Assembly: GCA_943353165.1 (NCBI GenBank)
Contig: CALRAM010000001.1
Span: 45,483-109,482 of the forward strand
Direction: 5' to 3'
Origin: an uncultured Candidatus Saccharimonas sp.
Lineage (GTDB): Bacteria > Patescibacteriota > Saccharimonadia > Saccharimonadales > OMJO01
DNA: 64,000 nucleotides
Positions 26,364 to 30,910 of the stretch are shown piece after piece (position 1 is the first letter of the stretch; each line of letters starts with the position of its first letter). The notes beneath the pieces were generated by a model. That model worked only from the letters and a program-made list of their open reading frames with translations. It was not told the origin of the DNA and did not search any database. Position numbers and translations under genes: made by a program.

Positions 26364-27182
26364 ATGTATAGCGGTACAACATTAAATAAAACATCTGGTC
26401 GTATTCTAGGTACACACCAAAAAATAGACAGAGTAGCTCGAAAGCATTTGTCTGTTATTTTAGAAGATAACAACGTTTTTCCTAAAGCAAACGCCATACT
26501 GCATTTTGAAGGCAAAAATGGCCCCGATGGCATCAAACGCAAGAGTCCCGCAAAGGACGAGCTGTGGCACTATTATAGTCCTTTTGACGACGATGATTCG
26601 GCCTTGCTAGATCTGATAAGAAACCATTACGACAAATTAGTCACAGAACTGCGTGCAAATAACGTTGAGCGAGTAGCATTCGAAGCTGCCTGGCTGTCCC
26701 ACGCTTTGGTTGACGGCCTAACGCCTGCGCATCATTACCCATATGAAGAAAAACTTTCCGAACTAAGGGGAGGCGAAGGTATGGAAAGCCGTGATTCTGT
26801 AAAAGATAAACTAATAATGCCAGGCAATACGCGTAGACAAAAGGTCAAAAACAATTGGAAAATGTGGGGACCAAAAGGATTGTTTACTACTCATGGTTTA
26901 TTCGAGATGGGTGTGGCCACAATTATGGCACCACTGGCCATGAAGGATGCAATGCCAACCGAATCTGATATAAATGAGCTTCTAGATATAGGCCTGTTAG
27001 AACGTTTTAAGAGAACAGCCAGAGAAATCGCAGTTTTAGATATGTACCATAATTATTATAAAAAAGGTTGGACACCCAAGTTTGCACACCAGGTTCGTCA
27101 TCAACTGGGCCCTGTAATAGTTAAAACAGTAACATTAGCATGGTATAGCGCCTTGATTGACGCCGGCAAAGTTAACAAATGA
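26364..27182 (+). CDS. hypothetical protein, possibly zinc-dependent phospholipase C / P1-nuclease-like fold
   Basis: 272 aa with no signal peptide. GTHQKIDRVARKHL and SHALVDGLTPAHH (H-x3-D-x5-H) resemble the metal-ligand spacing of the PLC/P1 superfamily. This assignment is from memory of motifs only. Confidence 0.45.
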   Translation: MYSGTTLNKTSGRILGTHQKIDRVARKHLSVILEDNNVFPKANAILHFEGKNGPDGIKRKSPAKDELWHYYSPFDDDDSALLDLIRNHYDKLVTELRANNVERVAFEAAWLSHALVDGLTPAHHYPYEEKLSELRGGEGMESRDSVKDKLIMPGNTRRQKVKNNWKMWGPKGLFTTHGLFEMGVATIMAPLAMKDAMPTESDINELLDIGLLERFKRTAREIAVLDMYHNYYKKGWTPKFAHQVRHQLGPVIVKTVTLAWYSALIDAGKVNK

Positions 27183-27709
27183 GAGTAATTTCAGGATCTT
27201 TGGGTGGCCAAAATTTTGAATCTCCTCATGGCCATAGAACTCATCCCATGAGCGACAAAATACGCGGTGCCATTTTTGGTGTATTAGGAGATATTAGCGG
27301 CTGTAGCGTGTTGGACGCTTTTTCTGGTAGCGGAGCTTTAGCCATAGAAGCCATCAGTAGAGGATCGTCTAGCGCTGTAGCCGTAGAAGTTGATGCTGGC
27401 GCACACGCTATAATAGTCAAAAACATCCAAAAGCTTGGAATAGAAAAAAAAGTTAAAGTTGTTCGGGCATTTGTAAATGCCTGGTCCACTAGGCATCAGG
27501 ACCAGTTATTTGACATTATCTTTGCAGATCCACCATACGACAATATCCCATATCGCGATCTTAAATTTTTAGCCAGACACCTAAAGCCAACCGGCACACT
27601 GGTATTGTCTTGGCCTGGCAAAGCAGATGTATACTATATTCCCGAACTAATTGAAGTTCAGATCAAAAAATACGGCGATGCCCAGCTAATATTTTATAAA
27701 TATGCATAA
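27179..27709 (+). CDS. rsmD: 16S rRNA (guanine966-N2)-methyltransferase RsmD
   Basis: MRVISGSLGGQNFESP.., LDAFSGSGALAIEAISRG and a DPPY motif. The start overlaps the upstream stop (ATGA). Confidence 0.85.
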   Translation: MRVISGSLGGQNFESPHGHRTHPMSDKIRGAIFGVLGDISGCSVLDAFSGSGALAIEAISRGSSSAVAVEVDAGAHAIIVKNIQKLGIEKKVKVVRAFVNAWSTRHQDQLFDIIFADPPYDNIPYRDLKFLARHLKPTGTLVLSWPGKADVYYIPELIEVQIKKYGDAQLIFYKYA

Positions 27710-27790
27710 TCATATTTTACTAATTACGCAAAATTTAGTACAATAACAGAGTGGTATAAGGAAAAAACATATGGATCTGTCGTATGTTAT

Positions 27791-27818
27791 GCGGACGACC
27801 GTGGCTGAAGGTTCATCC
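27791..27818 (+). repeat. tRNA-Leu-derived mini-fragment (5' acceptor/D start fused to a T-arm-like segment)
   Basis: GCGGACGACCGTGG matches the 5' end of the interrupted tRNA at 27851. The following CTGAAGGTTCATCC resembles CGTGAAGGTTCAAGTCC of the intact tRNA. Confidence 0.4.
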
Positions 27819-27890
27819 TATACGCCAAGTACGATACAATTTATAATTACGCGGACGATCGTGGAATTGGTAGACACGCTAGCCTTAGGA

Positions 27891-27998
27891 GTGAAACCCG
27901 CCTGTGGCGGGTTGCAAGGTCGGAAGCCTGGATTGCGCAAGCAACCAAGCTGAGACGGGGTCGCAACCGATTGGACTATGTCCAATAGGATTGTGACA
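27891..27998 (+). repeat. structured element copy A (variant): HP1 CCCGCC-TGT-GGCGGG, HP2 capped by GCAA, HP3 with extra nested hairpin
   Basis: GTGAAA-CCCGCCTGTGGCGGGTTGCAAGG-[AGCCTGGATTGC-GCAA-GCAACCAAGCT]-CGGGGTCGCAA..TTGGACTATGTCCAA..ATTGTGAC. It replaces the 3' anticodon-stem strand of the tRNA-like gene. Confidence 0.6.
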
Positions 27999-28017
27999 GT
28001 GCCGCAAGGCGTGAAGG

Positions 28018-28104
28018 AGAGACCCGCCTGTGGCGGGTCGCAAGGTAGACAACTCTTGCGAACTGGTTTGCAAAGATGTTGCTACGGGGTCGCTGAAAGT
28101 GACC
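28018..28104 (+). repeat. structured element copy B, inserted in place of TTC of the T-loop
   Basis: AGAGA-CCCGCCTGTGGCGGG-TCGCAAGG-[TAGACAACTCTTGCGAACTGGTTTGCAAAGATGTTGCTA]-CGGGGTCGCTGAAAGTGACC, flanked by GAAGG on the 5' side and AAGTCCTTT on the 3' side. Confidence 0.65.
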
Positions 28105-28151
28105 AAGTCCTTTTCAAAAGCCTCTTGAACCTTCATAATATTATACAGTGC

Positions 28152-28236
28152 GCGGATGTGGTGGAATTGGTAGACACGCTAGCCTTAGGAGCTAGTGCCG
28201 CAAGGCGTGAAGGTTCAAGTCCTTTCATCCGCACCA
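28152..28236 (+). tRNA. tRNA-Leu, anticodon TAG (UAG), class II long variable arm, CCA encoded
   Basis: Manual fold. Acceptor GCGGATG/CATCCGC. D stem GTG/CAC with GAATTGGTAGA loop. Anticodon stem CTAGC/GCTAG with loop CTTAGGA. Variable arm TGCCGCAAGGCGT. T arm GAAGG-TTCAAGT-CCTTT. Discriminator A followed by CCA. Confidence 0.9.
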
Positions 28237-28239
28237 ATC

Positions 28240-28270
28240 AAAAAATGCTCTCTTTTGAGAGCTTTTTTTG
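28240..28270 (+). terminator. intrinsic terminator after tRNA-Leu
   Basis: GCTCTC-TTTT-GAGAGC followed by a T run and preceded by an A run. Confidence 0.7.
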
Positions 28271-28297
28271 ATTTGTTCTGGAAGGTCTTGAACCAAA

Positions 28298-28422
28298 CCC
28301 TAAGGCGTGAAGGCGAGAGCCGCCTGTGGCGGGTTGCAGGGAAACCTTTCAGATTATCTACTTGTTGATAGTATGAAAGTTTTGGGGTCGCGGAACGTGA
28401 CCAAGTCCTTTCATCCGCACCA
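28298..28422 (+). repeat. tRNA-Leu 3'-portion-like unit carrying structured element copy C; ends in an exact copy of the tRNA 3' end (AAGTCCTTTCATCCGCACCA)
   Basis: CCCTAAGGCGTGAAGG-CGAGA-GCCGCCTGTGGCGGG-TTGCAGGG-[~42-nt hairpin]-GGGGTCGCGGAACGTGACC-AAGTCCTTTCATCCGCACCA. The element core spans 28314-28402. Confidence 0.65.
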
Positions 28423-28455
28423 AAACAAGTGACCCCGAAAGGGGTCTTTTGTTTT
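28423..28455 (+). terminator. intrinsic terminator after unit C
   Basis: GACCCC-GAAA-GGGGTC followed by TTTTGTTTT. The sequence is unrelated to the terminator at 28240. Confidence 0.7.
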
Positions 28456-28490
28456 GGTGGTCGAAATGCCCAGAACCTTCACCCTAAAAA

Positions 28491-28648
28491 GGCGTGAAGG
28501 GGAGAGCCGCCTGTGGCGGGTTGCAAGGCAACTTTACAGATTTCAAACTTGTTTGAAGTATGTAAATTGAGGGGTCGTGGAACGTGACCGAGCCCCCTGT
28601 CTTTCTGACAAGAAGGCCAGGCAGGACGGACAGGTTTCATTCACACCA
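28491..28648 (+). repeat. tRNA-Leu 3'-portion-like unit carrying structured element copy D plus a further ~45-nt hairpin insertion; degenerate 3' end TTTCATTCACACCA
   Basis: GGCGTGAAGG-GGAGA-GCCGCCTGTGGCGGG-TTGCAAGG-[hairpin]-GGGGTCGTGGAACGTGACC (core 28501-28589), then GAG-CCCCCTGTC..GGACAGG-TTTCATTCACACCA. Confidence 0.6.
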
Positions 28649-28686
28649 ACCATATATTGTATGAACTGACACAAAATAACACCTAT

Positions 28687-28712
28687 AGAGGAACGTCCTC
28701 TTTCTCTTGTTT
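28687..28712 (+). terminator. weak intrinsic-terminator-like hairpin downstream of unit D
   Basis: AGAGGA-ACG-TCCTCT followed by the T-rich tract TTCTCTTGTTT. The T tract follows the stem only on the + strand, so it is not the terminator of the LOG gene on the - strand. Confidence 0.4.
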
Positions 28713-28750
28713 CTGTTCTACACCCAATAGACTTGTAATTGATTTTTTAC

Positions 28751-29329
28751 TCATACAAATTTGTCCGCTAGTTCTTTTGTCTGATAATTCTTAAAATAAT
28801 TTAAGATATCATTCAAATCACTGCCAATAAACACAAAATCACTAAAAGGCACTTTTGAGAAATCTTTCTGTTGCATTTCATCTAGGAATTTTATGAGCGT
28901 ATCGTAAAAACCATCATAGTTAAAAATAGCAATCGGTTTGTCGTATAGTTTATTTACTTTACCACCAACAATTTCTCCAATTTCTTCAAATGTTCCGTAG
29001 CCGCCGGGCAAAATAATAAATGCGTCTGATTCAAAAACTATACGATGTTTGCGGTCGTCCATAGTTTCTTCTAAGTATGTTTTATCAAGTCCATCAAATG
29101 CTACATAGCCTTTGGTAACTGCCATCAAATCTTTTGCCATCACGCCAGTCAAATCATTGCCGCCAGCGTCTTTATAGGCTTTAGCAAGTTCAGACATCAT
29201 CCCATAGTCTGTTCCACCATAAACAATACCCATTTTTTCATTAGCAAGTCGTTCGGCAACTTCTATAGTCAAATCAATATATTCCTGCCCAACTGACAAA
29301 GAAGATGTAAGAGTTATACCCACTTTCAT
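28751..29329 (-). CDS. LOG-family protein (TIGR00730-type Rossmann-fold nucleotide-binding / phosphoribohydrolase)
   Basis: GIVYGGTDYGMM and the PGGYGTFEE motif (LOG family PGGxGTxxE). I chose the ATG at 29329 (MKVGITL..) inside tracked ORF 28751-29356. Confidence 0.85.
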   Translation of the reverse strand: MKVGITLTSSLSVGQEYIDLTIEVAERLANEKMGIVYGGTDYGMMSELAKAYKDAGGNDLTGVMAKDLMAVTKGYVAFDGLDKTYLEETMDDRKHRIVFESDAFIILPGGYGTFEEIGEIVGGKVNKLYDKPIAIFNYDGFYDTLIKFLDEMQQKDFSKVPFSDFVFIGSDLNDILNYFKNYQTKELADKFV

Positions 29330-29421
29330 AAATCTAATTATACAACAATTACCCAAAAATCTTTTCAGCCAAAAACTAAAAACCCTACAGAGCAGTTCAG
29401 CGAGTCGCCCAGAACCCTAAG

Positions 29422-29520
29422 GCGTGAAGGGGGGACCCGCCTGTGGCGGGCCGGACGTAAACAAACTCTTGAAAACTGGTTTTCAAAGATGTTTTTCTGG
29501 GTGAGATGAGAAGGGGGCTC
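29422..29520 (+). repeat. structured element copy E (5' part and HP2 conserved, linker and HP3 degenerate)
   Basis: GGCGTGAAGG-GGGGA-CCCGCCTGTGGCGGG-CCGGACG-[AAACAAACTCTTGAAAACTGGTTTTCAAAGATGTTTTT]-CTGGGTGAG.. HP2 is homologous to that of copy B. The 3' end coordinate is approximate. Confidence 0.5.
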
Positions 29521-29602
29521 ATTGTATAGGGACACAGACAAGATTATTCTACATCATCGATTACTAAAACCTATTTATGATGTATTATAAATAGGAATAA
29601 CT

Positions 29603-30910
29603 ATGGCACTATCTACACAACCATACAAAGGATCTAGGGATTTTTACCCAGAAGACAAGCGTCTCCAAAAACATATATTTGGAGTCATGCGTTCTATCTC
29701 TGAAAAATACGGCTACCAGGAATATGATTCGCCTATTTTAGAACCTACAGAAATATATTCAAACAAAACAAACGAAGAGATTGTAAACGAACAAACATAC
29801 ACATTCGAGGATCGGGGTAATAGAAAAGTTACTATTCGCCCAGAAATGACTCCATCAGTCAGTCGAATGGTTGCAGCCAAAAGGCAAGAGCTTCCATATC
29901 CGTTGCGTTGGTACTCGTTGCCCGTCAACTGGCGATATGAACGCCCTCAACGTGGCAGACTACGTGAATTTTGGCAACTAAACGTTGATTTGTTTGGTAT
30001 CGCAGGCTTAGAGGCAGAAGCAGAAGTCATCCAAGTCGCAGACGATATCATGAAGGCTTTTGGCGCTAAACCAAACATGTACAAAATAAAGATTAACAGC
30101 CGCAATTTGATGGATTACTTTATCAGCGATAGTTTGGGCATGGATAGCGTACAGTCGTCTGTACTAGTTCCGTTAATTGACCGGATGCATAAAATGGATT
30201 TTGCAGAATTTTCTGGGCAAGTAGAAGCGATATTTACACCTTCACAACGCGAAAATTCCGGACCTGATCAGTTATTTGAATTTTTAAAGATAACTAGTAT
30301 CGACGACCTACCCATTTCAATAAAAAACCATCCCTCTGTGATTACGCTAGTCAATTTGATAAAAAGGCTGACAAACGCGGGAATTACAAATGCTGTGTTC
30401 GAACCAACACTAATGCGAGGTTTTAACTACTACACAGATGTAGTATTCGAGGTTTTTGATACCCATCCAGACAATAATCGTTCTATGTTTGGTGGAGGGC
30501 GCTACGATGGCTTGGTAGGCGCCTACGGAGTAGAATCAGTCCCGACAGTCGGATTTGGCATGGGAGATGTGACAATATACAATTTTTTGGAATCACACGG
30601 CCTTACACCAACAGTCAAAACAGAAACGGATGTATGCGCGATTATTATAGGCGATACGCTAGAGCCCGCCCTAAAAATTATTTCTGAGCTAAGAGAAATG
30701 GGACTAAATGTTGCAGTGGCCAGTACCGAACAAAAGATAGACAAACAGATCAAAATAGCTGTCAAAAACGGCATAAAATTTGCAGTATTTTTAGGAGAAA
30801 AAGAGATAAAAAATCAACAAGTACTACTCAAAAATTTAGAAAATAGTACAGAAGAAATCGTCAGTTCACAGAGAGCAGTCAGCATCATCAAAGACTTTCG
30901 TATAAAATGA
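29603..30910 (+). CDS. hisS: histidine--tRNA ligase
   Basis: 435 aa with class II motifs (KGSRDFYPED, WRYERPQRGRLREFWQ, GGGRYDGL) and an anticodon-binding C-terminal domain. Confidence 0.9.
   Translation: MALSTQPYKGSRDFYPEDKRLQKHIFGVMRSISEKYGYQEYDSPILEPTEIYSNKTNEEIVNEQTYTFEDRGNRKVTIRPEMTPSVSRMVAAKRQELPYPLRWYSLPVNWRYERPQRGRLREFWQLNVDLFGIAGLEAEAEVIQVADDIMKAFGAKPNMYKIKINSRNLMDYFISDSLGMDSVQSSVLVPLIDRMHKMDFAEFSGQVEAIFTPSQRENSGPDQLFEFLKITSIDDLPISIKNHPSVITLVNLIKRLTNAGITNAVFEPTLMRGFNYYTDVVFEVFDTHPDNNRSMFGGGRYDGLVGAYGVESVPTVGFGMGDVTIYNFLESHGLTPTVKTETDVCAIIIGDTLEPALKIISELREMGLNVAVASTEQKIDKQIKIAVKNGIKFAVFLGEKEIKNQQVLLKNLENSTEEIVSSQRAVSIIKDFRIK

Follow-up and report, generated by a model that had tools for sequence, protein, structure and literature searches.

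What are the short, tRNA-like units that follow the tRNA-Leu gene of an uncultured Candidatus Saccharimonas sp.? Few mobile elements are known from Saccharibacteria and other Patescibacteria, whose genomes are tiny. In the 64-kb stretch of DNA analysed here (hereafter the window), two units, termed C and D, lie downstream of this gene and each is followed by its own terminator-like hairpin. An earlier note on this DNA had proposed that both are, or were, independent transcription units producing tRNA-like RNAs devoid of a 5' half, and had offered displaced att-site remnants as an alternative.

Results

Anatomy of the tRNA-Leu locus

The analysis confirmed, at their coordinates, all the sequence features that the earlier note had listed. 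The region contains one intact tRNA, at 28152-28236, which is also the only call made there by ARAGORN and Rfam. The following features surround it, E being the insert described below and anti-T an inverted copy of the T-arm:

27791..27826, + strand: fragment A, an internally deleted tRNA-Leu remnant (read directly; repeat families D12 and D20)
27851..28122, + strand: pseudo-tRNA-Leu B (read directly; repeat families D4 and D6)
28152..28236, + strand: intact tRNA-Leu(UAG), CCA encoded (ARAGORN; Rfam RF00005, 60.5 bits)
28298..28422, + strand: unit C, a partial tRNA-Leu copy (alignment to the tRNA, flank mapping)
28486..28648, + strand: unit D, an older and more degenerate partial tRNA-Leu copy (repeat families D2 and D5; flank mapping)
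28596..28634, + strand: F, a second small hairpin insert of unit D, CCTGTC...GGACGGACAGG (also in L017)
28751..29356, - strand: LOG/SLOG-family gene, between unit D and unit 5 (Pfam PF03641, PF18306)
29407..29522, + strand: unit 5, with the anti-T remnant GCCCAGAACC, then CCCTAAGGCGTGAAGG, then a degenerate E copy (cmsearch, 49.3 bits)

Upstream of the gene, fragment A joins the 5' acceptor and D-stem to a piece of T-arm, and aligns with the 3' end of the upstream pseudo-copy in strain L026. Pseudo-tRNA-Leu B, preceded by a TATAAT box (27843-27848), has kept an intact 5' part with 31 nt identical to the gene; it contains two E copies, its acceptor 3' strand is gone, and removing E in silico still does not yield a tRNA.

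Downstream, neither unit C nor unit D holds a complete cloverleaf (both acceptor strands, D arm and anticodon arm), and ARAGORN and Rfam were negative for both. Unit C consists, in this order, of the 3' half of the variable arm, the 5' T-stem strand, an E copy, the remaining T-arm, the acceptor 3' strand and CCA. Its end is indeed the tRNA 3' end, as had been noticed before: the window has exactly two occurrences of CAAGTCCTTTCATCCGCACCA, one inside the tRNA (28216-28236) and one closing unit C (28402-28422), with 0 expected from shuffled sequences. The exact direct repeat spans 21-22 nt (28216-28237 and 28402-28423, family D8), and a similar one is found in about 15 other loci. Unit D likewise ends, as reported, in the degenerate TTTCATTCACACCA (repeat family D5); it contains E and also the insert F, located between its T-stem and acceptor remnants. 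In unit 5 the tRNA 3' part is gone. Over 107 nt, units C and D are 82% identical, at a spacing of 187 nt (family D2), and the copy closest to the tRNA gene is the best preserved.

The start shared by the units had been compared with an anticodon loop. This does not hold, since CCCTAAGGCGTGAAGG aligns, with 2 mismatches, to the variable arm and 5' T-stem strand CCGCAAGGCGTGAAGG of the tRNA. More generally, the first reading overlooked that only the ends of units C and D are tRNA-derived, with roughly 12-16 nt on the 5' side and roughly 21 nt on the 3' side; between them lies an 88-90 nt E placed exactly at the position of T54-T55. This mobile, structured T-loop insert, the dominant feature of the units, had gone unrecognised. 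Swapping E for TT in silico gained no tRNA call in the window. Our best reading is that both units are redundant, incomplete duplicates of the 3' portion of the neighbouring tRNA-Leu(UAG) gene, starting in its variable arm and ending with CCA, and not genes for 5'-less tRNAs.

A family of structured elements in Patescibacteria

E is an ORF-less sequence of 88 nt (88-90 nt in units C and D) that forms three hairpins, A, B and C. Five copies occur at the locus, two in the upstream pseudo-tRNA, one each in units C and D and a fifth past the LOG-family gene, all of them embedded in tRNA-Leu-derived sequence:

27891..27997, + strand: E1, replacing C40-T41 of the anticodon stem, hairpin C extended (cmsearch, 43.3 bits, E-value 3e-9)
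28017..28104, + strand: E2, replacing T54-T55 of pseudo-tRNA B (cmsearch, 99.9 bits; flank mapping)
28313..28402, + strand: E3, replacing T54-T55 (cmsearch, 77 bits)
28500..28589, + strand: E4, replacing T54-T55 (cmsearch, 74.5 bits)
29430..29522, + strand: E5, degenerate, without hairpin C (cmsearch, 49.3 bits)

The window contains 4 matches to a 22-nt core motif of E, where 0 would be expected. Beyond the window, a 20-nt motif was present in 23 contigs from genomes and 35 from metagenomes, most of them assigned by name to Saccharibacteria or Patescibacteria, and a cmsearch with a covariance model (cut-off, E-value < 1e-6) retrieved 65 copies from contigs of Saccharibacteria and related Patescibacteria. 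When a tRNA is present in the locus, E lies on the same strand as the nearest one in 58 of 59 copies and within 300 nt of it in 49 of 59. The neighbouring tRNAs are specific for Leu, Lys, Arg, His, Val, Pro, Gln, Ser and Ala.

The fold is well supported by covariation. The seed alignment of 17 copies shows compensatory changes in 24 of 34 pairs; in the 65-copy alignment, 93.6% of the cells are paired, double changes affect 29 of the 34 pairs, and the covariation score reaches 0.552, shuffles scoring 0.161 and slid partners no more than 0.11. Because G-U cells (174) far outnumber A-C cells (20), the fold is strand-specific. Some G-U pairs are conserved and some unpaired nucleotides invariant, and hairpins A and C, near the two ends of E, follow a common pattern, CGCC-loop-GGYG.

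No Rfam (15) family matched E in the region at E-values up to 10, and permissive thresholds applied to 15 related loci returned tRNA only, as in the window. Three E patterns gave 0 matches in viral contigs, and the units had no blastn match in the phage and plasmid collections. Our literature searches yielded nothing on E; all they returned concerned group I tRNA introns of Patescibacteria, fragments of tRNA genes, or tycheposons. Hammerhead, twister, pistol, hatchet and HDV ribozymes and group II domain V were also considered and rejected for want of an Rfam match and because neither the AGC triad nor the core motifs show conservation; for hairpin A a kink-turn was rejected, as the loop geometry does not fit.

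Insertion sites of E

In 27 of the 29 copies that could be mapped, exactly two tRNA nucleotides are missing between a flanking G and C, and in 17 mappable copies these are TT. An empty and a filled site can be compared directly in contigs L035 and L057, which are 98-99% identical: the full tRNA-Ser(CGA) gene, uninterrupted in L057, carries 88 nt instead of TT in L035 and is otherwise unchanged. Together with a unit devoid of E (see below), this pair contradicts the idea that E insertion is mechanistically tied to local duplication. Besides the T-loop, E occupies D, anticodon and variable arms as well as hairpin C of other E copies, and nested copies exist (e.g. L010, 500-658). With E2, the copy inside a tRNA-Ser pseudo-copy of L021 shares 90% identity and one in a tRNA-Pro D arm 84%; both are nearer to E2 than E3 or E4 is.

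The hosts are almost exclusively dispensable tRNA copies, nearly all truncated: replacing E by TT in silico brought back an ARAGORN call in two cases only, the tRNA-Ser of L035 and a tRNA-Pro copy of L003. No transposase, integrase or reverse transcriptase was found in the 64-kb window, nor beside the arrays of L005, L022, L026, L039, L040 and L062. To our knowledge, no transposition chemistry swaps exactly two target nucleotides.

Terminators and inverted T-arm copies

The sequences between the units contain the following elements:

28124..28135, + strand: anti-T CTTGAACCTTCA, its AA facing T54-T55 (I14, 12/12 complementary to 28208-28219)
28233..28276, + strand: terminator 1, stem 28247-28262 in a palindrome with 20-nt arms (inverted repeat I1)
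28279..28294, + strand: anti-T, inverted copy of GGTTCAAGTCCTTTCA (I9, 88% complementary)
28418..28459, + strand: terminator 2, stem 28431-28446 (inverted repeat I2; directly after the tRNA in L026)
28463..28482, + strand: anti-T, inverted copy of GTGAAGGTTCAAGTCCTTTC (I3, 80% complementary)
28687..28712, + strand: terminator-like hairpin 3, weak (terminator search)

The three unrelated terminators described previously are present, each a hairpin with a T tract (28247-28262, 28431-28446 and 28687-28701). Terminator-like sites number 7 in the region against 1.4 expected, their function in termination being predicted from sequence. The three unrelated ones are most readily understood as terminators of the tRNA gene that were displaced or imported. 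No promoter-like site was found between terminator 1 and unit C or between terminator 2 and unit D. This, the interruption and decay of the copies, and the absence of the block formed by terminator 1 and unit C from a near-identical strain all speak against independent transcription units. The layout of the anti-T at 28279..28294 recurs in at least 15 other loci.

Strain variation and cargo

L026 and L064 encode an identical RsmD protein and have flanks 97-99% identical to the window. In both, a 186-nt block (about 28237-28422: terminator 1, anti-T and unit C) is missing, the tRNA directly precedes what is terminator 2 in the window, and the cargo genes differ. The LOG/SLOG gene is such strain-variable cargo, another gene taking its place in L026. 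Blockwise presence or absence in related strains, which had been suggested as a check, is therefore observed for this 186-nt block, and it is bounded by repeats of the tRNA 3' end. Similarly, a unit of 84 nt without E, lying between 20-nt repeats, is present in L057 and absent from L035; units with inserts unrelated to E are also found.

The arrays share a common geometry. In about 20 of 22 loci the E copy of the first downstream unit begins 70-91 nt past the tRNA, and in these first units the 20-21 nt following E are identical to the tRNA 3' end. Whole units fold well, with z-scores near -6, and in unit 3 of L022 the anti-T and the flank are altered together. Cargo found between units elsewhere includes a RelB/YafQ pair (L022) and a CBASS-like SMODS and SLATT pair (L005).

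These observations bear on the proposal of att-site remnants. Speaking for it are the direct repeats of the tRNA 3' segment, located downstream of the full gene and co-oriented with it, the repeat-bounded segment that varies blockwise between related genomes, and the accessory genes between units. On the other hand, no integrase lies in the window or beside the other arrays examined, a bounded element is absent, the repeats enclose no mobility genes (0 genes in the case of units C and D, or one LOG gene), and the shared start of the units lies in the variable arm and not at an anticodon-loop crossover.

Discussion

How did such a locus arise? We propose, with slightly better than even confidence, that strain-variable partial tRNA copies at a recombination hot spot have been colonised by a new non-autonomous structured element, E. 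The proposal starts from what is directly observed, namely how the locus is built, the E family with its fold, the sites with and without E, and the indel of a whole block. Partial tRNA-Leu copies would have accreted serially beside the gene, each retaining or importing its own, different terminator; an accretion model for partial tRNAs beside tRNA genes is available (bioRxiv 10.1101/2020.12.28.424599). E would replace two nucleotides at G-NN-C in tRNA-derived DNA, mostly in the T-loop, and may be mobilised in trans by an enzyme encoded elsewhere. Its near confinement to dispensable tRNA copies would be explained if insertions in essential genes are, as we presume, lethal, and a fold specific to the tRNA-sense strand suggests a single-stranded RNA or sense-strand DNA intermediate.

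Several points speak against this proposal. No transposase, integrase or reverse transcriptase was found in the window or near the arrays examined, and no two-nucleotide replacement chemistry is known to us. Random accretion followed by colonisation does not predict the uniform geometry of first units, nor an anti-T before each unit that pairs with both E flanks, and the strong terminators kept after the units do not favour it either. Moreover, the pairing of hairpin B is held by compensatory changes, even between the old copies E3 and E4, which could reflect a host-level RNA function rather than selfish spread, and the 186-nt strain difference may stem from a deletion between 22-nt repeats and not from an insertion.

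Some of these points would find an explanation in a tRNA-anchored, integron-like system, an alternative that is possible but that we hold to be unlikely. Each unit would be a mobile cassette composed of a terminator or cargo, anti-T, a loop, the 5' T-stem strand, E and the tRNA 3' end; its recombination site would be a folded single-stranded end with anti-T paired to both E flanks, and a recombinase encoded elsewhere would add cassettes beside the tRNA, using the 3' end of the gene as docking site. The regular first units with a tRNA 3' end 20-21 nt long past E, the accessory genes that separate one unit from the next (LOG in the window, RelB/YafQ in L022, CBASS-like in L005), the indels bounded by tRNA 3'-end repeats, the terminator that differs from unit to unit, the strand-specific fold with z-scores near -6 for whole units and the joint change of anti-T and flank in L022 unit 3 all agree with it. 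It is weakened by E standing alone, without unit or anti-T, in a full tRNA-Ser gene, by E in D, anticodon and variable arms and in other E copies, and by units that lack E or carry unrelated inserts. A recombinase is absent near every array examined, and a unit without cargo measures about 190 nt, too little for a double-stranded circle. One could also imagine, with somewhat less probability still, that E is a new ORF-less mobile structured RNA, or that E and anti-T together form the folded recombination site of such an integron-like cassette system; as a mobile RNA, E could enter tRNA or tDNA loops by two-nucleotide exchange, either acting as a small ribozyme or with the help of a host enzyme that recognises it.

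The idea of a functional RNA can be revised so that E becomes a host RNA domain carried on tRNA-derived scaffolds. It would be expressed from tRNA promoters or by read-through, processed or stabilised through the tRNA-like ends and the anti-T helix, and would act on the cognate tRNA or bind a protein. Very strong covariation, conserved G-U pairs and invariant unpaired nucleotides argue for it, as do the co-orientation with the tRNA (58 of 59), tRNA-type -10 boxes ahead of upstream copies, the terminators after units, and the E copies at G37/C40 of a tRNA-Leu pseudo-copy in L018, L023 and L060, whose hairpin B sequences differ while the fold is kept. We nevertheless find it decidedly improbable, because copies decay (E5 without hairpin C, unit D degenerate, E1 at 43 bits), are nested, vary in presence between near-identical strains and have destroyed, by one insertion, a full tRNA-Ser gene; five copies of different subtypes sit at one locus, and no promoter-like site precedes C or D.

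Two further explanations carry very little weight. A local tandem duplication of the tRNA-Leu 3' region followed by decay, the internal sequence not being mobile, would account for the identity (82% over 107 nt) and 187-nt spacing of C and D. It is already contradicted by the occurrence of the same 88-nt element at 65 places, beside nine kinds of tRNA and in many genomes, by the empty and filled pair, by the unrelated terminators and by an E2 closer to copies of other genomes than to its neighbours E3 and E4; we regard it as highly improbable. Scarcely any probability can be granted either to E being a tRNA intron that is spliced to give working tRNAs. E does lie within tRNA-shaped sequence, once in a full-length tRNA-Ser gene, and group I introns of tRNAs are abundant in Patescibacteria (PMC13011429). 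However, nearly all hosts are truncated, E has just 88 nt, neither Intron_gpI nor another Rfam family matches, and exact excision cannot restore a tRNA because the universal T54 and T55 are missing. Inspection of the alignment shows that both E boundaries are GGUGA-like and non-complementary, so that no bulge-helix-bulge, with its two 3-nt bulges on either side of a 4-bp helix, is possible; an archaeal-type intron of this kind was accordingly rejected, its excision leaving the T-loop 2 nt short. Also discarded were a split or trans-spliced tRNA made from B and C, which both carry antisense pieces of the same polarity, and a retroviral-type primer-binding site, the acceptor complement being scrambled.

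The locus varies between near-identical strains and bears defence-type cargo despite a reduced genome. If an integron-like system were confirmed, it would provide a shuttle for defence and toxin-antitoxin genes among reduced Saccharibacteria genomes. The mechanism by which E moves could expose a new insertion chemistry or a new enzyme guided by RNA or single-stranded DNA, and could account for the build-up of accessory genes beside tRNA genes in Saccharibacteria and other Patescibacteria. In practice, the E covariance model picks out pseudo-copies of tRNAs, together with one disrupted tRNA gene, which are overlooked or left without explanation by standard annotation. We know of no described transposon, intron or RNA family that fits an 88-nt T-loop element with a two-nucleotide replacement and a strand-specific fold.

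Comparison with known systems

A parallel can be drawn with the tycheposon islands of Prochlorococcus (bioRxiv 10.1101/2020.12.28.424599), which belong to the general class of tRNA-targeting integrative elements and in which direct repeats of the 3' part of a full tRNA gene, separated by cargo, likewise lie downstream of that gene. As in islands of this accretion type, the newest and most variable material adjoins the tRNA, close strains differ, and the cargo relates to defence or toxin-antitoxin functions. The present arrays differ by having no integrase or element body and units down to about 190 nt without cargo, by an anti-T before each partial tRNA and an E splitting each, and by mirror-image arrays that also occur 5' of the gene. 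The group I tRNA introns of Patescibacteria, from the same phylum, are also ORF-less structured RNAs in tRNA genes that standard finders miss. In contrast to them, E has 88 nt, lies mainly in the T-loop, removes two tRNA nucleotides and has no group I core or Rfam match; as nearly all its copies sit in truncated tRNA copies, it does not qualify as a splicing-competent intron of functional genes.

Integron cassettes also form arrays of short, often promoterless units, some of them empty, with a strand-specific folded site of conserved structure at their end (attC) and the newest cassette next to the docking site; the GTTC of the T-loop resembles the start of the integron core GTTRRRY. Here, anti-T and T-arm form an imperfect palindrome with GAAC/GTTC that does not match the full R''/R' boxes (RYYYAAC / GTTRRRY). 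The docking site would be a tRNA gene, IntI is lacking and no tyrosine recombinase occurs in the window. E is a side branch and not the apex of the hairpin, and it moves independently of the units.

PATEs of the IS200/IS605 type and REP/BIME sequences, which are non-autonomous, hairpin-ended elements of single-strand transposons, are, like E, small, ORF-less, multi-copy and nesting, their enzyme being presumed to lie elsewhere, and they share strand-specific hairpins near both ends and a fixed orientation (58 of 59 E copies with a tRNA). IS200/IS605-type elements insert 3' of a fixed target of 4-5 nt, which they leave unaltered, whereas E replaces 2 nt at G-NN-C and has a long covarying central hairpin; no Y1 (HUH) transposase is encoded in the 64-kb window. 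Rickettsia palindromic elements and bacterial MITEs are also short, selfish, structured and lineage-restricted, and are tolerated inside genes or remnants. E differs in having neither terminal inverted repeats nor a target-site duplication: its ends, (G)TGAGA... and ...GTGAC(C), are not inverted repeats and the empty and filled pair shows a loss of TT without duplication, so that a MITE was rejected. It folds into three separate hairpins and strongly prefers a tRNA-derived target.

Results

Partial tRNA-Leu copies around an intact gene

The only tRNA gene across all 64 kb, tRNA-Leu(UAG), is also the sole intact one in the rsmD-HisRS intergenic space. It is accompanied by partial copies of itself (A and B on the 5' side; units C, D and 5 on the 3' side), and E, an element of 88-90 nt with three hairpins, splits such copies.

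Features of the rsmD-HisRS intergenic space and its borders (window positions)
27179-27709: RsmD-type methyltransferase gene, one border
27791-27826: fragment A, tRNA-Leu remnant with an internal deletion
27851-28122: pseudo-tRNA-Leu B, upstream; 5' two-thirds of the gene kept, acceptor 3' strand lost
27891-27997: E1, within B
28017-28104: E2, within B
28124-28135, 28279-28294, 28463-28482: inverted copies of the tRNA T-arm (anti-T), from an inverted-repeat search
28134-28139: -10 box CATAAT serving the intact tRNA-Leu gene
28152-28236: tRNA-Leu(UAG), intact
28298-28422: unit C, containing E3
28486-28648: unit D, containing E4
28751-29356, minus strand: LOG/SLOG-family gene, between unit D and E5
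29407-29522: unit 5
29407-29416: anti-T remnant by unit 5
29430-29522: E5, degenerate, with the same CCCTAAGGCGTGAAGG flank, directly upstream of the HisRS gene
29603-30910: histidyl-tRNA synthetase (HisRS) gene, other border

As the earlier note had stated, the 21-nt sequence CAAGTCCTTTCATCCGCACCA ends both the tRNA and unit C, unit D ends in a degenerate form of it, and tRNA, C and D are each followed by a hairpin and a T tract, at three sites of unrelated sequence. The 21-nt sequence has exactly two occurrences (shuffles expect 0). The common start of C and D (CCCTAAGGCGTGAAGG) had been likened to anticodon-loop sequence. It is instead the variable arm plus the 5' T-stem strand, where the tRNA reads CCGCAAGGCGTGAAGG.

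Preservation declines away from the gene (tRNA > C > D > unit 5), in line with the accretion model published for partial tRNAs adjoining tRNA genes (bioRxiv 10.1101/2020.12.28.424599). Since E5 lies beyond the minus-strand LOG gene, the array spans a protein-coding gene. Besides E4, unit D contains another small hairpin insert (28596-28634), CCTGTC...GGACGGACAGG; a different Saccharimonadales genome has it too, in a pseudo-copy of tRNA-Pro (L017 278-303). The upstream side is a mirror of the downstream one, with remnant A, then pseudo-tRNA B (27791-28122). B has its own TATAAT box along with its two E copies, and the 5' acceptor strand reads GCGGACGA.CGTGG in A and B versus GCGGATGTGGTGG in the intact gene.

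E replaces two tRNA nucleotides

In the tRNA, GTGAAGG and CAAGTCC are separated by TT (T54, T55), and the units have 88-90 nt there instead. A covariance model found five E copies in the window, where the 22-nt core motif has four occurrences (0 expected). We mapped insertion sites by placing the 10 nt on either side of E on the intact tRNA nearby. Of the 29 mappable copies, 27 lack exactly two tRNA nucleotides, with a G and a C flanking the gap. The missing pair was the TT of the T-loop in 17 copies, AG beside the anticodon loop at L018, L023 and L060, and CG or AG of the D arm at L003 and L004. By inspection, it was CT of the anticodon stem for E1 and CG of the variable arm for the upstream copy of L026, a variant strain. 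Inspection also revealed an E nested in another E at L010 500-658, the inner copy replacing GT in the 5' strand of the outer hairpin C. A full E match abutted by a partial one was observed at L038 5766-5926, L039 8892-9048, L040 14671-14828 and L056 96-254; judged by match positions, this looks like the same nesting, and hairpin C may be a recurrent self-target.

An empty and a filled site were found in the related loci L057 and L035, 98-99% identical over the locus. The tRNA-Ser(CGA) of L057 is intact and called by ARAGORN; L035 has a full-length tRNA-Ser(CGA) in which 88 nt replace TT, otherwise unchanged. By wobble rules, tRNA-Ser(CGA) is likely dispensable where tRNA-Ser(UGA) exists. When E was replaced by TT in silico, a tRNA call was regained only at this tRNA-Ser and at one L003 tRNA-Pro copy, so E is almost confined to truncated, dispensable tRNA copies. 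E2 shares 90% identity with the E of a tRNA-Ser pseudo-copy from another genome, and 84% with an E lodged in the D arm of a pseudo-copy of tRNA-Pro; both are nearer to it than E3 and E4 of its own locus.

Fold and distribution of E

The consensus fold comprises hairpins A (outer helix GUGA/UYGC, internal loop GAG/G, then CCGCC-UGU-GGCGG), B (long, variable in sequence) and C (GGUCGCC-GAA-GGUGACC), with linkers AAG between A and B and GG between B and C. Compensatory changes occur at 24 of 34 pairs in the seed alignment. When all 65 copies are aligned, 93.6% of cells are paired, with double changes at 29 of the 34 pairs. The covariation score reaches 0.552; shuffles score 0.161 and slid partners no more than 0.11. 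Fitting of this alignment to the model works in its favour, but the difference is large. Altogether, support for the three-hairpin fold is very strong. As G-U cells far outnumber A-C cells (174 versus 20), the fold is that of the tRNA-sense strand, whether in RNA or in single-stranded DNA of the same sense. Old E copies retain it.

No match of E to Rfam was obtained, even at E-value <= 10. An exact 20-nt pattern matched 35 metagenome contigs and 23 genome contigs; about 17 of the latter hold up as real, and nearly all of these carry the name Saccharibacteria, Saccharimonadales or Patescibacteria. No match was found in viral contigs, phage records or plasmid records. A covariance model built from 17 copies retrieved 65 copies at E-value < 1e-6 from 43 sources. 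Where a tRNA was present in the locus (59 copies), E had the strand of the nearest tRNA in 58 cases and lay within 300 nt of it in 49, upstream of the gene in 22 and downstream in 27. The neighbouring tRNAs are of the Leu, Lys, Arg, His, Val, Pro, Gln, Ser and Ala kinds. For one copy (L015 5440-6100, score 88.8 bits) there is no tRNA within 8 kb; the sequence around it resembles pieces of other E copies (GGGGTCGC immediately upstream).

Inverted T-arms

Every T-loop E copy in the window has an uninterrupted T-arm inverted nearby, with AA opposite T54-T55. These anti-T copies are able to pair with both E flanks, and in unit 3 of L022, a tRNA-Lys locus, anti-T and flank co-vary. The distance from tRNA to first E is uniform (70-91 nt). 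The DNA 3' of each terminator is the tRNA 3' region inverted, its T-arm part retained and its acceptor part scrambled.

This post-terminator DNA inverts the preceding T-arm, CCA and terminator, giving palindromes of 35-45 nt (28233-28294, 28418-28482); others of this type occur in L016, L022, L040 and L049. The entire promoter region 5' of tRNA-Arg(CCG) occurs in repeats at L022 2250-2460, with an inverted D arm (CTCTATCCAATTGAGC) and an 18-nt 5' tRNA fragment before each repeat, a 5'-side counterpart of the anti-T arrangement.

Blockwise gain and loss

Among contigs encoding the exact RsmD protein, many are identical to the window; one variant strain, L026 (matching L064), has flanks 97-99% identical and a tRNA-Leu sequence that is the same by eye. 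In L026 the tRNA runs directly into the window's terminator 2 (that of unit C), followed by anti-T and a D-like unit. The difference is therefore a 186-nt block (terminator 1, anti-T and unit C), bounded by a 22-nt direct repeat. L057 has, relative to L035, an extra 84-nt unit lacking E, bounded by 20-nt repeats. The earlier note had proposed comparing relatives for units that come and go as blocks, and they do.

The upstream pseudo-copy of L026 differs from the window's. Fragment A and its promoter match the 3' end of this older pseudo-copy, which shows a mirror-image history on the 5' side, where the block is 300 nt, bounded by a 31-nt repeat. Gene content also turns over among genomes otherwise 97-99% identical (L026 3372-5152 versus window 27710-29356): in L026 a CBU_0592-like gene stands where the window has LOG, and a DUF2268 gene separates rsmD from the tRNA. 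Downstream of tRNA-Lys at L022 there are three units, and a RelB/YafQ pair lies between the second and the third. At L005 92-3779 a CBASS-like defence module (DUF3892, SMODS/AGS_C and SLATT_4 proteins) is encoded in 3.4 kb with an E-bearing unit on either side; the E of the second unit has an extra insertion in its hairpin A loop.

The T-loop of similar units is filled by unrelated small inserts in L057, L052 and L023. These E-less look-alikes (L057 ~806-1120, downstream of tRNA-Ser GCT; L052 1111-1300; L023 5215-5365) are laid out as terminator, anti-T, 5' T-stem strand, insert and tRNA 3' end, and one insert family, starting TCGTGTAGCGA, is common to L023 and L052.

Discussion

Two separable processes operate at this locus, unit formation and E insertion, as units form without E (the 84-nt unit of L057) and E inserts without a unit (tRNA-Ser of L035). 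We propose that C and D are redundant partial copies, produced when blocks recombined at the 3' end of the tRNA, and that their differing terminators are the gene's own, displaced or imported. E, in this reading, is a non-autonomous structured insertion element that colonised these copies. The earlier idea that C and D are promoter-driven genes for tRNAs lacking a 5' half found no support, a promoter-like site being absent before either. The window's gene content is pure housekeeping (DnaE, NusA, RecG, RpoB/C, EF-G, ribosomal proteins). No transposase, integrase or reverse transcriptase was found in the 64-kb window or beside the other arrays examined, so any enzyme must act in trans.

One would also wonder whether the folded unit could be the recombination site of an integron-like cassette system, or whether E could have a host RNA function. 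We keep both alive beside the insertion element on account of the exact 2-nt replacement, the anti-T pairing, the uniform 70-91 nt distance and the fold retained in old copies. Whole units fold far above shuffles (z-scores near -6), but this cannot discriminate between mobile element, cassette and host RNA.

Partial-tRNA arrays beside tRNA genes are already known. An ORF-less, T-loop-targeted element of 88 nt with three hairpins is absent from Rfam 15, and a full-text literature search found no description of one. E is restricted to Saccharibacteria and relatives. By kind it would be a small non-autonomous mobile element, with a modest chance that its mechanism of insertion is new.
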